DNA from: Alphaproteobacteria bacterium
GTDB lineage: Bacteria; Pseudomonadota; Alphaproteobacteria; JAUXUR01
NCBI GenBank assembly: GCA_030680745.1
Contig: JAUXUR010000079.1
Span: forward strand, 5,304 to 69,303
DNA length: 64,000 nt
Direction: 5' to 3'
The notes under the pieces are model-generated. The model was not told the origin of the DNA. It was given only the letters and a program-made list of their open reading frames with translations, and made no database searches. Shown in pieces: positions 25,653-51,507 of this stretch. A program made the translations under genes and the position numbers. Numbering within the stretch: the first letter of the stretch is position 1; every line of letters begins with the position of its first letter.

Positions 25653-28010
25653 ATGAAGTTTATGAATTTATCTTTTTTATCACTAATGTTTGCATTTACA
25701 TTAAGTCATTCAACGCCCAGTACTGCTTTTGTGGTTGAGGGAACATTTGGTGTTGATCGTATTATGTATTGTCCTGTGAATGATCCGCTTCAGGCAAGAA
25801 TGGTTTTACCTTCAATTGTTGATCAAAGTTTTCGTATTGATGAAAATGATCTGATGCAGGGTCATTATCAAATAAATCTGTATAATAATGATCGTTGTGA
25901 AGGTATTAATCATTTTTATGTTTTGCCCTCTATTGATAATTATGTCGTTCAAATTAATCAAAATGGTCTTGTTTCCTTTGATAAGATTCCTGACGATATG
26001 GATGTTTATGTTCAATCTACAGTGGCACAAACAAACGATAAACTCGAATTAATTGGTAATAATGCTTTTTTTGATTCTTCAAATTTAGATGCAATAATAG
26101 TTATTCGATATGTAGTGTTTGGTGAGGCACAAATAGTTGAAATTCCCGTTTATCCAAATATTGTGAATCTTGAGCCTCTTGTTGTTGCGCCTCCTGTTGT
26201 TGCGCCTGTTATTGTGCCAGCAATTGTTCCTGTTCAGCCTCTTGTTGTTGCGCCTGTCATAGCACCAGCAATTGTTCGTGTTGAGCCTCCTGTTGATGTA
26301 CCAGTTGAAATCATTGAAAATGAGGTAATATTTGAACCTGTTCATCCTATTAACATTATGAAAAACTATGCGGAAAATGCTAGTCGTATTGAATATGGGC
26401 GTGTGGGTACAATAAATGATTTTAAAGTAATTCTTCCAAACGCAAATAAAGATTTTATTACTGATTTAGCTGAACTTGCTCCTGGTCATTATTACCTTGA
26501 TTTTTATCAAGGCGAGGTGCTTCAAACAACAAATTATCTTTATATTTTTCCCGGGTTATACCCATCAGCGATTCAAATACAGAGATACGATGATGGATTC
26601 ATAGATCTATATTTGACAGGCAATTTTTTAGGTAAAAAAATAATTTGTGGTTCTGATGTGGCTCAAGATTTTGAAGTTCTTGAGGGTGTTGGCCGTGATA
26701 ATCATATTATGGCTTGTAATTTTTTAGGTAAATTTTATGAGGATATGACCATTAAAGTTATAACAGCTTTAGATAGAAACCTTGAAGGAATTATTGAAAT
26801 ACCATTTTTTCCAGATGATCGATTTGCCGTAAGGGAATATAATAGAGAAACACAAGAAGTTGTTGAGCCTTTTCTACCAATTCAAAATCCGATAATTATT
26901 AATAAAAATTATGATGAATCTGATCGTATAGAATATGGACGTGTTGGTTCAGTAGATAATGCTAAAGTAATTTTGCCTAATGATCGCCAAGAATTTATTG
27001 TTGATTTAGATAGACTTGCACCCGGTCATTATTATCTTAATTTTTATCAGGGTGGAGATTGTCAAAAAACGAATTTTCTTTATGTTTTTCCTGGGCTGTA
27101 TTCATCAGCAATTCAATTGCATAGATATCCTGATGGTAATATGAGTTATGATTTGACGGGTGATTTTAGAGATAAAAAATTTAGCTGTGTTTCAGCGGCT
27201 AGAGCTCATAATGATATAGGACGTATCTATCAAAATAAACTTGCTTTTGATCGTACAAATTTTATTGATGAAGTGCTTGATTTAAAAATTGTAGTGACTA
27301 TGCCTGCAGGTGAAGATTTTGAAAGAATTATTGAAATTCCAGTCGTTCCTAATGAACAAAATGTTGTGAAAGATAACACTAAGGCTGTAGGAATTATTGC
27401 GTTGGTTCCAGCACCGGCACCAGTTATTTTGGCACCAATTCCAGCGCTAAATCCAATTGTTGTTGAGCAAGTACCTGTTAGATTTAAGCCTATATTTCAG
27501 CCTATCGATGAACAGCGTATTCAGGAAATGATCGAAGGTTTTCACAATGCTAAGGGTATATGGGGAAAACATGAAGATATTATGAATAAAGGGCCTTTTT
27601 GTCTTGGAAATTATGGTAGACTTCAAAATGTATCAGAAAAAGTAATTAAAAAAAATGATGTTGAAAAATTTAATTCTTACGAAGAAATGTTAAATTATTT
27701 TGATTTAAAAGATTTTAATTACAAAAAAATCTGTGAAAATCGTCTTAAAGAACGTAATAATATAATAGCAGGTACATTTATTATTGATCGACCTTATGAC
27801 CTTAAAGATTTTACGGATTATGATTATATGATTTTTGTGGCGTCATTAATTCGTCACTGTGAAAAATATTTGAGTGAAGTTGAAATTGAACATTTAAAAA
27901 CTCTTTTCAAAGGTTTTTTTGAAGATCAAATTGATCGTTGTACAACAGGTTTGTTTATTAGAATGTTTAATATGCAAACGCAAATTCTTACAAATTTCTT
28001 TAAAAACTAG
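25653..28010 (+). CDS. Secreted or surface repeat protein with a Pro/Val-rich linker and a duplicated ~190-aa domain
   Basis: AGGAG SD before the ATG at 25653; signal peptide MKFMNLSFLSLMFAFTLSHS. Linker PLVVAPPVVAPVIVPAIVPVQPLVVAPVIAPAIV. Duplicated block NYAENASRIEYGRVGTINDFKVILPN...LAPGHYYLDFYQG...FPGLYPSAIQ aligns with NYDESDRIEYGRVGSVDNAKVILPN...LAPGHYYLNFYQG...FPGLYSSAIQ. Confidence 0.6.
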   Translation: MKFMNLSFLSLMFAFTLSHSTPSTAFVVEGTFGVDRIMYCPVNDPLQARMVLPSIVDQSFRIDENDLMQGHYQINLYNNDRCEGINHFYVLPSIDNYVVQINQNGLVSFDKIPDDMDVYVQSTVAQTNDKLELIGNNAFFDSSNLDAIIVIRYVVFGEAQIVEIPVYPNIVNLEPLVVAPPVVAPVIVPAIVPVQPLVVAPVIAPAIVRVEPPVDVPVEIIENEVIFEPVHPINIMKNYAENASRIEYGRVGTINDFKVILPNANKDFITDLAELAPGHYYLDFYQGEVLQTTNYLYIFPGLYPSAIQIQRYDDGFIDLYLTGNFLGKKIICGSDVAQDFEVLEGVGRDNHIMACNFLGKFYEDMTIKVITALDRNLEGIIEIPFFPDDRFAVREYNRETQEVVEPFLPIQNPIIINKNYDESDRIEYGRVGSVDNAKVILPNDRQEFIVDLDRLAPGHYYLNFYQGGDCQKTNFLYVFPGLYSSAIQLHRYPDGNMSYDLTGDFRDKKFSCVSAARAHNDIGRIYQNKLAFDRTNFIDEVLDLKIVVTMPAGEDFERIIEIPVVPNEQNVVKDNTKAVGIIALVPAPAPVILAPIPALNPIVVEQVPVRFKPIFQPIDEQRIQEMIEGFHNAKGIWGKHEDIMNKGPFCLGNYGRLQNVSEKVIKKNDVEKFNSYEEMLNYFDLKDFNYKKICENRLKERNNIIAGTFIIDRPYDLKDFTDYDYMIFVASLIRHCEKYLSEVEIEHLKTLFKGFFEDQIDRCTTGLFIRMFNMQTQILTNFFKN

Positions 28011-28165
28011 ACTTCTTTCGACTCGCTAATGTGGGGCGAGTGATAGAAGATTCGGCACGGAAGACCGCAGTGTATTCTTCATACATGAGGATCTGAGTAC
28101 CGAAGCGACGCATCAATCGACCACAGTAGTAGAGTTTCGAAAGAAGTCTACTACTTGATGCGTTG
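28010..28165 (+). other. Highly structured intergenic segment with multiple crossing inverted repeats. It may be an sRNA or leader, or a repeat-element remnant.
   Basis: gacttctttcga (28010) pairs with tcgaaagaagtc (28137). gacgcatcaatcgaccacagtagtag (28107) pairs with ctactacttgatgcgt (28149). ttcggcac (28051) pairs with gtaccgaa (28098). Local hairpin actcgc..gcgagt (28021-28041). Confidence 0.35.
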
Positions 28166-28189
28166 AATTTTAGGCATCGATCACGTTGG

Positions 28190-28227
28190 ACCGCTTTATC
28201 GAAAAAAAGATGAAGCGGTTTTTTTTC
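28190..28227 (+). terminator. Candidate rho-independent terminator or attenuator (accgctt-N16-aagcggt followed by T8)
   Basis: 7-bp stem with a large loop, followed by tttttttt; lies between the surface-protein gene and valS. Confidence 0.4.
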
Positions 28228-28331
28228 ATTAAATTTTATCGTTAGGTTTTCGGCTATAACAATTGTAAATTAGTTGAGGCTATTATAGAATACGTTCATT
28301 AAATCGCATCCCCTAATCATACGAGTAAACG

Positions 28332-30986
28332 ATGTTAAATAAGAATTATATCTCTCAAGATGTTGAGCAAAAATGGTATCCTGTTTGGGAAAAATCTGGG
28401 GCATTTAAATGCGATCCTCAATCTTCTAAAAAGCCTTATACGATTATGATGCCACCGCCAAATGTGACGGGTTCGCTTCATATTGGTCACGCACTGACTT
28501 TTACATTACAGGATATTCTTATCCGTTTTTATCGGATGAAAGGATATGATGCGCTTTGGCAACCTGGGACGGATCATGCAGGTATCGCAACCCAAATGGT
28601 TGTTGAACGTGAACTTGCAAAACAACAATTATCACGTAGGGAATTGGGCCGTGAAAAATTCTTGGAAAAAGTTTGGGCTTGGAAAGAAGAATCTGGCAAT
28701 CAAATTACACATCAATTAAGACGGTTAGGGGCAAGTCCTGATTGGGATCGTGAACGTTTCACGATGGATGAAGGATTGTCGCTTGCCGTGCGTAAAGTAT
28801 TTGTTGATCTTTTTGATCAAGGTCTTATTTATCGGGATAAAAGACTAATCAATTGGGATCACAAATTGATGACGGCTATTTCTGATTTAGAGGTTGAAAA
28901 TCATGAAATAAATGGTTCATTCTATTATATAAATTATCCTGTGCAAGGAACAAAAGACCGATTCATTACGGTTGCAACAACGCGTCCTGAAACAATGTTT
29001 GGGGATATGGCAGTAGCTGTTCATCCTGATGATGATCGTTATCGTGATTTAATCGGTAAAAGTGTTTTATTGCCGCTTACGGATCGTTTAATCCCCATTA
29101 TTGCAGATCTGCATTCTGATCCAGAAAAAGGGACGGGGGCTGTTAAGATTACGCCTGCGCATGATTTTAACGATTTTGAAGTCGGGAAAAGACATAAATT
29201 AGAACCTTTAAACATCATGGATGAACATGCTTGTTTAAATGAAAACGTACCTGTTGATTTCCGTGGGCTTGATCGACTTGTGGCGCGTCCAAAAGTTGTT
29301 GAAATGCTGGAAGCGCAAGGCTTTATGCAAAAAATTGAGCCTCATATTTATACGGTGCCCCATGGCGATCGGTCTGCGGCAATCATTGAGCCTCGATTAA
29401 TGGATCAATGGTATGTTGATGCGCATACTTTAGCGCAGCCTGCTATTAAGGCTGTTGAAGAGGGGCGCATTCAATTTTATCCTAAACATTACGAAAACAC
29501 TTATTTTGAATGGTTGCGGAATATTCAGCCTTGGTGTATTTCCCGTCAATTATGGTGGGGTCACCGCATACCTATTTGGTATGGTCCAAATAATACATTG
29601 TTTTGTGCAATGGATGAAGAAGAAGCTATAGCTAAAGCACATAAACATTTCGGTAAGGATGTCGAGTTACGTCAAGATGAAGATGTTTTAGACACTTGGT
29701 TTTCGTCAGGTTTATGGCCTTTTTCAACTTTAGGATGGCCGAATGAGACACCTGAATTGAAACGCTATTATGCGACGGATGTATTGGATACGGGCGCCGA
29801 TATTATTTTCTTTTGGGTGGCGCGGATGATTATGATGGGGCTTCATTTTATGAAAGAAGTGCCTTTCAAACATGTTTATATTCATCCATTGATTCGGGAT
29901 GAGCATGGTCAAAAAATGTCCAAAACAAAGGGTAATGTTATTGATCCTTTGGATATTATTGAAAAATTCGGCGCTGATGCAATGCGTTTCACGTTGGCGA
30001 CTTTAGCTGCCCAAGGACGTGACATTAAATTATCGGAAAATCGTGTTGAAGGTAATCGTAATTTTGTGACTAAAATTTGGAATGCAGCGCGTTTCACGGA
30101 AATGAATGAATGCCGTTTGGATCCTGATTTTGATCCAAAAAAAGCAACATTATCTCTGTCGAAATGGATTATTTCGGACATTATGGATCTTGCCAAAAGT
30201 GTTGAAGAATCGCTTGTGGCTTATAAATTCAATGAAGCGTCTCAAAGTTTATACCAATTCACTTGGGGCACTTTCTGCGATTGGTATTTGGAATTTATTA
30301 AACCAATTTTCTTTGGGGAAGATGAAGAGGCCAAAAAAGAAATACGTGCTGTAACGTCTTGGGCATTTGGCCAATTGTTACATATGTTGCATCCTTTTAT
30401 GCCTTATGTCACAGAAGAATTATGGGAGAAACGTTTTGGTTCCCCTGATGGATTGCTGATTCAATCTTCATGGCCAGATTTTACAGCTTTTGAAAATATT
30501 AAAGATGTTCAAGCGCAAGATGAAATGCAATGGGCGATACGGTTTATATCAGAAATTCGTACATTGCGCGCTGAAATGAATGTGCCGCCATCGTCTTTCG
30601 TACCTTTATGCTTGAAAGATGTAAGCAAGGCAACAAATGATCGTTTACAACGTCATGATGTGCTATTGAAACGCTTGGCACGTTTATCTGATATTTCAAT
30701 TATTGTTGATGGGCAAATTCCAAAAGGCGCTGTGCAAAGCGTATTAGATGAGGTCACTCTTTTTGTGCCATTAGCAGATATTATTGATTTTGCTAAAGAA
30801 AAAGAAAGATTGTCGCGCGAAATTACGAAATTAAATGATACGATCGTGCGTCTTGATGAAAAATTGGGTAATGAGAGTTTTGTTGCTAAAGCACCAGCCG
30901 ACGTTGTTACACAGTTTAAAGTGCAAGTAGAAGAAGCGCATCTAAGACGGCAAAAATTAGAAAAGGCATTGGAACGATTAAGCTAG
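28332..30986 (+). CDS. valS: Valyl-tRNA synthetase
   Basis: HIGH motif (PPPNVTGSLHIGHAL), KMSKS (KMSKTKGN), C-terminal coiled coil; 884 aa. Confidence 0.95.
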   Translation: MLNKNYISQDVEQKWYPVWEKSGAFKCDPQSSKKPYTIMMPPPNVTGSLHIGHALTFTLQDILIRFYRMKGYDALWQPGTDHAGIATQMVVERELAKQQLSRRELGREKFLEKVWAWKEESGNQITHQLRRLGASPDWDRERFTMDEGLSLAVRKVFVDLFDQGLIYRDKRLINWDHKLMTAISDLEVENHEINGSFYYINYPVQGTKDRFITVATTRPETMFGDMAVAVHPDDDRYRDLIGKSVLLPLTDRLIPIIADLHSDPEKGTGAVKITPAHDFNDFEVGKRHKLEPLNIMDEHACLNENVPVDFRGLDRLVARPKVVEMLEAQGFMQKIEPHIYTVPHGDRSAAIIEPRLMDQWYVDAHTLAQPAIKAVEEGRIQFYPKHYENTYFEWLRNIQPWCISRQLWWGHRIPIWYGPNNTLFCAMDEEEAIAKAHKHFGKDVELRQDEDVLDTWFSSGLWPFSTLGWPNETPELKRYYATDVLDTGADIIFFWVARMIMMGLHFMKEVPFKHVYIHPLIRDEHGQKMSKTKGNVIDPLDIIEKFGADAMRFTLATLAAQGRDIKLSENRVEGNRNFVTKIWNAARFTEMNECRLDPDFDPKKATLSLSKWIISDIMDLAKSVEESLVAYKFNEASQSLYQFTWGTFCDWYLEFIKPIFFGEDEEAKKEIRAVTSWAFGQLLHMLHPFMPYVTEELWEKRFGSPDGLLIQSSWPDFTAFENIKDVQAQDEMQWAIRFISEIRTLRAEMNVPPSSFVPLCLKDVSKATNDRLQRHDVLLKRLARLSDISIIVDGQIPKGAVQSVLDEVTLFVPLADIIDFAKEKERLSREITKLNDTIVRLDEKLGNESFVAKAPADVVTQFKVQVEEAHLRRQKLEKALERLS

Positions 30987-50170: not shown

Positions 50171-50247
50171 TGGTCGGGGAGGAGGGATTTGAACCCCCGA
50201 CATCCTGCTCCCAAAGCAGGCGCGCTACCAGGCTGCGCTACACCCCG
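50171..50247 (-). tRNA. tRNA-Pro (anticodon UGG)
   Basis: Reverse complement CGGGGTGTAGCGCAGCCTGGTAGCGCGCCTGCTTTGGGAGCAGGATGTCGGGGGTTCAAATCCCTCCTCCCCGACCA; T-loop GGTTCAAATCC; anticodon loop cTTTGGGAg; encoded CCA. Confidence 0.9.
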
Positions 50248-51363: not shown

Positions 51364-51383
51364 AAATACGCATCCAGATTATG

Positions 51384-51473
51384 GGCAAATTTGTCGTCAG
51401 AACTGCGTTTCCGGTACTCATGTACAAGGAGTACACTCCGTTCCGGTTCTCGTTCTTTCTAAACTTTGCCTCA
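51384..51473. repeat. Family-C palindromic repeat between the two rhodanese genes
   Basis: Terminal inverted repeat ccagattatgggcaaa / tttgcctcataatctgg; internal palindrome gtactcatgtacaaggagtacac; homologous to 20028-20118. Confidence 0.6.
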
Positions 51474-51507
51474 TAATCTGGGCGCTTACATGGTTATAGG
51501 ATTTGCA

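Follow-up and report, generated by a model that had tools for sequence, protein, structure and literature searches.

A probable IS5-type miniature inverted-repeat transposable element upstream of valS, and its family in uncultured bacteria

Introduction

The 321-nt spacer upstream of valS, the gene of valyl-tRNA synthetase, in contig JAUXUR010000079.1 (assembly GCA_030680745.1) holds a densely structured element that is very probably a miniature inverted-repeat transposable element (MITE). Coordinates refer throughout to the window, i.e., the whole stretch of 64,000 nucleotides that was analysed (positions 5,304 to 69,303 of the forward strand of the contig). The organism is apparently an alphaproteobacterium, to judge from a ValS that shares 63-64% identity with that of Azospirillum, from a Tim44-like protein and from a class A RNase P RNA. 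An initial annotation, made from the sequence alone, had described overlapping inverted repeats in the spacer and proposed three readings of them, namely a small RNA (sRNA), a regulatory leader of valS or a decayed repeat element.

The closest described systems are the bacterial MITEs derived from IS5-type insertion sequences (IS) with transposases of the DDE_Tnp_4 / NF033581 type. Within the IS5 family, the subgroups ISL2, IS1031 and IS427-like make target duplications of 2-4 bp. The family to which the window element belongs agrees with IS5-derived MITEs in that its members are small and non-coding, occur in many dispersed intergenic copies and are present or absent between close relatives, and in that 16-nt terminal inverted repeats and a duplication of the form ANT are held in common with the full-length elements at two loci, L112 and L136. 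Its interior sets it apart, being rod-like over the full length, with an asymmetric core that is conserved, and not mere leftover IS sequence. In eukaryotes, the Tourist-like MITEs and the PIF/Harbinger elements depend on a related transposase fold family (Pfam DDE_Tnp_4). Tourist-like MITEs are short, carry a 3-bp A/T-rich duplication and owe their high copy numbers to amplification by an autonomous element related to them. These systems differ from the present family in their eukaryotic hosts, in a duplication of TWA rather than ANT and in their unrelated sequences.

Most bacterial MITEs have inverted ends of 4-30 bp, a terminal TA dinucleotide, a typical length of 100-400 bp and no protein-coding capacity, and their transcripts form highly stable stem-loops (PMC5896051). 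The lengths of QMITE1 and QMITE2 are 300-400 bp and about 190 bp, and their repeats measure 2-3 nt and 7-9 bp, respectively (PMC5896051). The window family differs from Correia, ERIC, RUP, QMITE1 and QMITE2 in ends, duplication and sequence, and from Rickettsia palindromic elements (RPE) in ends and duplication. Correia elements (CREE) of Neisseria are similar in length (about 100-200 bp), in having terminal inverted repeats and in number, with hundreds of intergenic copies, and in both systems the target junction creates a signal, which is a promoter in Correia and a stop codon in the window element. In contrast to the window family with its ANT, Correia elements duplicate TA, and they have unrelated 26-bp ends and a central IHF site (in part after PMC10969869). 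Their transcripts form hairpins that are cut by RNase III, and the elements can affect how adjacent genes are expressed (PMC10969869). The ERIC (IRU) elements known from enterobacteria are likewise palindromic, though imperfectly so, and about 127 bp long; they lie in intergenic regions that are transcribed, in many cases at the 3′ ends of genes, where they change mRNA stability and decay (PMC10969869). They share no sequence relationship with the window family, live in different hosts and have no known partner IS. Several families of RPE, palindromic repeats of about 100-150 bp, occur in AT-rich intracellular alphaproteobacteria (PMC10969869), and the window likewise holds several palindromes. 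However, RPE are noted for in-frame insertion inside genes and are without defined ends, duplication or transposase, whereas the window family is intergenic and has all three.

Boundaries and empty site

The element occupies bases 28009-28149 of the + strand (141 nt), 'forward' being defined by the asymmetric central motif of the family. It forms an imperfect rod and is non-coding, the longest ATG-started frame inside it having three codons (ATG AGG ATC TGA). Its ends may be written AGACTTCTTTCG(AA)AC / GTTTCGAAAGAAGTCT and form a perfect 12-bp inverted repeat. According to the alignments, the left terminal inverted repeat, AGACTTCTTTCGAC (28009-28022, +), has two A fewer than the consensus AGACTTCTTTCGAAAC, and the right one, GTTTCGAAAGAAGTCT (28134-28149, +), equals the consensus. 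Directly outside the ends lie two copies of the triplet ACT (28006-28008 and 28150-28152), which correspond to the target-site duplication in the flanks ANT...ANT of the family.

Four close relatives were obtained by protein search (ValS 93, 80, 76 and 74% identical) and their contigs were compared; an exact look-up of the window ValS returned no record, and a contig scan with ValS gave relatives at 63% identity or less among the matches listed. L081, the relative with the 93% identical ValS, shares with the window the upstream gene, its terminator and the promoter of valS, but not the element. The end of the upstream open reading frame (ORF), the terminator and the promoter-like stretch are conserved in the alignment, and the rod is cleanly missing. 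When 28009-28152 are removed, the window reads ...AAAAACTACTTGATGCGTTGAATTTTA and aligns without a gap to ...GCAAATTAGTTGAGTGATTGAAATTTA of L081. The bases that follow the right triplet (28153-28187, +) are ancestral intergenic DNA with a homologous counterpart in L081. This comparison of an occupied with an empty site is with one genome, L081; in the relatives with 80% and 74% identical ValS, the genes upstream of valS are unrelated and divergently transcribed, and the spacers are short and without similarity.

Bases 28009-28149 are, with high confidence, a non-autonomous DNA transposon moved by an IS5-type transposase and inserted at ACT. The site is the extreme 3′ end of the upstream ORF (25626-28010, +; 794 aa, no Pfam match), the stop codon of which, TAG at 28008-28010, consists of the last T of the duplication and the AG of the element. 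By sequence arithmetic, the frame would without the insertion be longer by four codons (Y L M R) and end at a TGA, 28164-28166.

The element also stands out by composition. The initial annotation had reported a GC content above that of the flanks, and the values are 47.4% in 28010-28165, 26.9% in 27500-28009 and 34.3% in the whole window; for the rod itself the figure is 47%, with about 27-30% on its flanks. An element of 47% GC in a window of 34% GC was counted in favour of a mobile origin, as was the occurrence of its nearest copies in a Legionellales genome.

Family and target sites

Metagenomes were searched with a pattern of two 11-nt ends placed 100-130 nt apart. This yielded 95 loci with about 120 copies, mostly of 136-146 nt, from more than 30 samples; by a rough estimate of our own, roughly one match would be expected by chance for such a 22-base pattern. 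Nearly all matches share features that are not part of the pattern, i.e., ends extended to AGACTTCTTTCGAAAC (GAAAC), flanks of the form A-W-T and the central core. (Note that the extended ends are near-invariant in an alignment of 43 copies, but that this set was itself retrieved by the 11-nt ends.)

A covariance model, R1, was built from 43 oriented copies. It scores family copies at 100-154 bits in one orientation and at about 45-85 bits in the other; for the window element, the + strand scores 101.6 bits (E = 1.4e-21), as against 44 bits for the - strand. The loci from the ValS contig scan were reused as a negative control; together with the four close-relative loci, these 80 other valS loci from alphaproteobacteria amount to 812 kb and gave nothing above 18 bits. 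In the relative with 80% identical ValS, L082:8416-8541 (-) is a weak match (18.1 bits, E = 0.34) and either a very diverged copy or due to chance. BLAST with the element found no second copy, either in the window or among the 84 loci that had been obtained with ValS (80 valS loci and the four close-relative contigs); three diverged relatives in the window were missed by BLAST and later found by R1.

The nearest copies, at loci L126, L128 and L129, are 75% identical to the window element overall and 69% identical in the interior. Proteins of their assembly match a Legionellales genome from groundwater (OGV32379.1), and the other hosts are labelled only as uncultured bacterium or Pseudomonadota. 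L177 has eight copies within 15 kb, and four of these follow one another head to tail. Such arrays, with a period of 145 nt, and also dimers of the form E-ATT-E (E being the element), were seen in one metagenome organism, on several Ga0210402 contigs (L177:9541-10119; L087, L102, L117, L122 and L143).

Outside the very high-copy subfamily, identical ANT triplets flank 49 of 67 copies. When the element is defined as AGAC...GTCT, AAT and ATT are far commoner in the family than ACT and AGT. Flank position -5 is A in all 72 copies and position +5 is T in 67 of the 72, and the middle bases, -4 and +4, match in 52 of the 72, against about 30 expected by chance. A 2-bp duplication of TA, which was the first reading of these flanks, was rejected in view of the invariant -5 A and +5 T and of the matching of the middle bases; only a 3-bp ANT gives the gapless alignment to the empty site and explains the dimer junctions. 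In the very high-copy subfamily, most triplet mismatches are due to tandem dimers (triplet-E-ATT-E-triplet), the outer triplets of which match (e.g., AGT...AGT at L122), and this agreement suggests that dimers may transpose as units.

Nearly all copies lie in intergenic DNA (at least 63 of 72), mostly just past the 3′ ends of genes. As at the window locus, the junction TAG serves as the stop codon of the flanking ORF in six of the 72. No ORF is conserved across the copies in the family alignment. The possibility that the conserved ATG in the core opens a small ORF was considered and rejected, the frames stopping after 3-20 codons and differing between subfamilies.

A blastn search of a plasmid collection gave no match to one 146-nt query built on the copy of L129, and a literature search with the end sequence only returned a single occurrence, in an unrelated paper on hypoxia signalling in humans. 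A family with ends AGACTTCTTTCGAAAC, a 3-bp ANT duplication and a length of about 140 nt seems to be undescribed, but may be catalogued in ISfinder as an IS with a MITE.

Partner transposase

The locus L112:1491-2349 carries an element of 859 bp with the ends AGACCTCTTTCGAAAC / GTTTCGAAAGAAGTCT and the flanks AAT/AAT. Its minus strand matches the Pfam domains HTH_Tnp_4 (8.7e-11), DDE_Tnp_4 (5.8e-13) and also DDE_Tnp_1. Of the 285 positions of the IS5-family model NF033581 (NCBIfam), 2-73 and 163-284 are accounted for by fragments of its gene. Each fragment scores below the full-length cut-off of that model, the gene being split into three frames by either decay or frameshifting. A second locus, L136:1062-1753, encodes a related transposase (50-70% amino-acid identity) and has the ends AGACCTCTTTCAAAAT / ...GCAAGAGGTCT, again with the flanks AAT/AAT. 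Among annotated relatives, the best is a transposase of the IS5 family from a plasmid of Legionella anisa (L180, NZ_CP082853.1, 39220-40045), which is 64% identical to that of L112; its right end is GGTTTGGAAAGAGGTCT followed by ATT, whereas its left end is unrecognisable and possibly truncated beside a Tn3 fragment. Plasmids from symbionts of insects and isopods (Fukatsuia, Spiroplasma and Rhabdochlamydia) carry further relatives of the transposase.

From the same ends and the same ANT duplication, which is the standard argument for mobilisation in trans, we infer that the MITE was moved by a transposase of the L112 type. In the proposed mechanism, a full-length IS5-family element that has these ends would supply a DDE transposase acting in trans; this would bind AGACTTCTTTCGAAAC and its inverse and cut an ANT target with a stagger of three bases, giving rise to the 3-bp duplication. 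With the insertion at ACT, at the extreme end of the 794-codon gene, the T and AG of the junction now supply the stop codon, and four C-terminal codons are removed. The window copy is probably an immobile fossil, because its left end is without two A and no matching transposase is present in the window.

Transcriptional context

Between the upstream ORF and valS (28332-30986, +) there are three consecutive structures on the + strand, i.e., the rod (28008-28150, +, 143 nt in the minimum-energy fold), a weak predicted hairpin (28155-28180, +) inside the ancestral flank, and an intrinsic terminator of the upstream gene (28188-28226, +). The stem of the latter (28188-28221, 13 pairs by scan) runs with its 3′ arm into eight T at 28219-28226, in agreement with the stem and T run of the initial annotation. 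A promoter-like site for valS follows at 28263-28291 (+; TTGTAA, 17 nt, TAGAAT), identified as a consensus match only. As both the terminator and the promoter-like site are conserved in L081, which is without the rod, the terminator is that of the upstream gene, a separate promoter region serves valS, and the rod is an addition. The element does not regulate valS, on which no effect of it is expected.

Folding was assessed on both strands. The + strand of 28005-28235 folds at -85.7 kcal/mol, compared with -54.9 ± 4.3 kcal/mol for shuffled sequences (n = 200; z = -7.1, none of the 200 as good), and the - strand is similarly exceptional (z = -6.75 against shuffles). The element sits between the stop codon of the upstream gene and the older terminator of that gene, and should therefore be transcribed in the 3′ untranslated region (UTR) of the upstream mRNA. 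The long hairpin expected there (about -57 kcal/mol) could be a substrate of RNase III or change the stability of the mRNA, and an effect on the upstream mRNA similar to that of Correia and ERIC elements is plausible by analogy. Regarding the upstream protein, the last 155 residues are 43% identical to L081:14-469 despite a ValS identity of 93%, which indicates that this ORF is evolving very fast.

Conserved core and orientation

The hairpin of the family is kept by compensatory change. Overall, 93.9% of the alignment cells are paired, against 76% in shuffled alignments and 35-47% when partners are slid; double changes occur in 31 of 48 pairs, and the covariation score is 0.449 compared with 0.138 in shuffles. 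The sequences of the arms between the invariant ends differ almost completely among subfamilies. The apical motif is invariant and consists of C-G-n-A-G-T on the 5′ side and A-T-G-A-G on the 3′ side of a 5-bp hairpin; it could form G.A/A.G mismatches and a conserved G.T pair. In the window element this asymmetric core lies at 28065-28091 (+) and reads CCGCAGTGTAT, a TCTTC loop and ATACATGAGGA, the columns being invariant or nearly so in the alignment of 43 sequences. Smaller kept motifs are CAAGG in the left arm and AACG/GACG in the right arm. No consistent match to the IHF site WATCAANNNNTTR was seen in the centre by eye, no formal scan having been made.

The core persists across subfamilies with rewritten arms, in elements with different ends and in both alpha- and gammaproteobacterial hosts. 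Elements with different ends are represented in the window by diverged relatives at 51367-51488 (-; R1 49 bits, E = 2e-9) and 20008-20129 (+; R1 37.7 bits, E = 8e-7), which have the same core, and by a shorter one at 23357-23458 (-; R1 25.6 bits, E = 5e-4), an inverted repeat with a conserved core and the ends AGCGAAATGAG / CTTATTTCACT. These three are intergenic hairpins that share the core CGGAGTGTAC..GTACATGAG and GACGA, and all are anti-oriented to their flanking genes.

Among 72 copies, the fold of the forward strand is more stable than that of the complement by 5.8 kcal/mol on average, the forward strand being favoured in 63 copies and disfavoured in 8. Copies between genes of the same direction are co-oriented with them in about 70% of cases (29 versus 11, p = 0.006), and copies are scarce in divergent promoter regions (3, versus 17 in convergent spacers). 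Possible causes of the core and of the orientation bias are a host bending factor for the synapsis of the ends, a strand-specific role of single-stranded DNA or RNA, and a bias between replication strands.

Several points weigh against a MITE moved by an IS5-type transposase as the full account. Binding by a transposase leaves the invariant asymmetric motif and the prevailing co-orientation without explanation. In the 64-kb window the copy is the sole canonical one, the multi-copy status coming so far from other genomes, and the cognate transposase was not found within the window. The direction of the event, an insertion rather than a deletion in L081, is taken from the properties of the family without an outgroup, gene order being lost in the distant relatives.

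A broader view would place the conserved unit in the strand-asymmetric core, with CAAGG and GACG as its internal loops, and, if this conservation is functional, regard the element as a mobile 3′-UTR RNA (or single-stranded DNA) module that spreads horizontally and binds a conserved host factor, and not as a purely selfish MITE; we consider this unlikely. Less probable still is the reading that the element is a functional, strand-specific RNA module of the upstream 3′ UTR, i.e., a stabilising or protein-binding hairpin or a 3′-UTR-derived sRNA, for which mobility would explain the arrival only. Transcription between stop codon and terminator, an apical motif that stays invariant while the arms turn over by compensatory changes, the better fold of the forward strand and the excess of co-oriented copies all speak for such a function, and known MITEs are reported to affect transcripts in this way (PMC10969869; PMC5896051). 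Against it stands the absence of the element from the relative with 93% identical ValS, which argues against a conserved function at this locus. Moreover, G-U pairs are not enriched over those A-C mismatches that correspond to G-U on the opposite strand (about 47 versus about 41 in a hand tally, with the one conserved G-U excluded), so that selection on one RNA strand is not favoured, and the rod hairpin of the window copy is equally stable on both strands (-57.5 kcal/mol on each). The three other core-bearing elements of the window are oriented against their neighbours, and the orientation bias could reflect replication-strand bias instead.

Other palindromes in the window

Further long, GC-rich, intergenic palindromes are present at 3658-3859 (202 nt, -96.5 kcal/mol), 21889-22003 (115 nt, -65.3 kcal/mol) and 59716-59906 (191 nt, -107.8 kcal/mol), each arm of the last being itself a hairpin (CCTCTCCC..GGGAGAGG). 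A near-perfect hairpin of 37 nt with a 16-bp stem lies at 19640-19676. None of these four is matched by R1, and they may represent other repeat families.

Such palindromes bear on the question whether the element belongs to another class, namely REP/BIME (mobilised by a RAYT, i.e., Y1, transposase), hairpins of the IS200/IS605 type, or RPE-like repeats without a DDE partner. REP/BIME elements are defined by a hairpin unit of 20-40 nt with a 5′ tetranucleotide of the GTAG type, no target duplication and a linked Y1 transposase. Membership in REP/BIME was rejected, the unit here being a 141-nt rod with 16-nt ends, a 3-bp duplication and a DDE partner. For the class as a whole it could be said that the entire element and not its ends alone forms the hairpin, that this hairpin is kept by compensatory change, that orientation is biased as in single-strand transposons and that several unrelated GC-rich palindromes share the window. 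However, a 3-bp direct duplication flanks single copies and dimers alike, whereas elements with Y1 transposases are not known to make a target duplication, and elements of the IS5 family with a DDE-type transposase share both the ends and the duplication. A Y1 transposase was not seen, although the loci were not systematically searched for one. Origin from such a class is very unlikely.

Crossing repeats and valS

All inverted repeats to which the initial annotation assigned coordinates are present; its 8/8 pair, listed without coordinates, had no unique counterpart. The 12/12 pair (28010-21 / 28137-48) is part of a 21-nt pair (28008-28028 / 28130-28150, 86% complementary), the '26/16' pair corresponds to two pairs, 28108-28116 / 28155-28163 (9/9) and 28125-28136 / 28144-28155 (12 nt, 92%), and the local 6-bp hairpin is found at 28021-26 / 28036-41. 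Their interpretation as a pseudoknot or as mutually exclusive structures was not supported. The crossing hairpin joins the right arm of the element (28108-28116 and 28125-28133) to 28147-28163, in which 28150-28152 are the target triplet and 28153-28163 belong to the ancestral flank recognisable in L081; the arm 28155-28163 is thus supplied by flanking DNA specific to this locus. When the crossing hairpin is forced, the fold reaches -57.8 kcal/mol and is 28 kcal/mol worse than the rod fold (-85.7 kcal/mol). As a null, the best duplex of each family copy with its own 18-nt flanks was determined. Of 268 family flanks, 9% pair as well as or better than the right flank of the window element (-18.3 kcal/mol), the match of which is partly due to the palindromic end of the element itself. 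Judged by these folding models, the crossing arrangement is probably a coincidence.

A cis-regulatory leader of valS that works through mutually exclusive crossing structures, in the manner of an attenuator or riboswitch, would be in keeping with the position upstream of valS, the crossing repeats and the terminator-like stem with its T run, but can for practical purposes be dismissed, since the terminator and the promoter-like site that separate the element from valS are conserved in L081, from which the element is absent, the alternative fold is much the worse and uses as its 3′ arm a flank of unremarkable complementarity (top 9%), no Rfam family, T-box included, matches, and the relatives with 74-80% identical ValS have unrelated, divergently transcribed genes in this position.

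An independent sRNA gene was not borne out either; no promoter-like site was found on the + strand in 27800-28010, no Rfam family matches and the element is not conserved at the locus. Rfam searches of the whole window (gathering thresholds), of the region (E up to 10) and of eight family loci gave tRNAs, RNase P RNA and noise, the best hit for the region being BTnc049 with 18.4 bits against a threshold of 81.9. The sole Rfam matches in the window are a class A bacterial RNase P RNA at 36436-36825 (-, 298 bits) and one tRNA at 50174-50247 (-). A rod RNA like 6S or SRP RNA, considered from the shape, was likewise rejected, because Rfam gave no support for it and the close relative is without the element. 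Of the three readings proposed initially, the decayed repeat element is the one retained, as a MITE copy.

Implications

A candidate regulator of valS is removed by this analysis, and the structure is, at the confidence given above, transposon debris in the 3′ UTR of a neighbouring gene. Elements of this kind are well known; noteworthy in the present family are its distribution across classes, its dimers that apparently move as units and its conserved asymmetric core. The family reaches a very high density in some uncultured bacteria, with up to eight copies in 15 kb. It is common to a low-GC alphaproteobacterium and to Legionellales, which fits an exchange of mobile DNA among bacteria that presumably live in the same hosts. 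Rods of this type are otherwise liable to be annotated as sRNA candidates, and the covariance model R1 would allow them to be masked. The core and the orientation bias raise the question of what a transposon of 140 bp needs beyond its ends.

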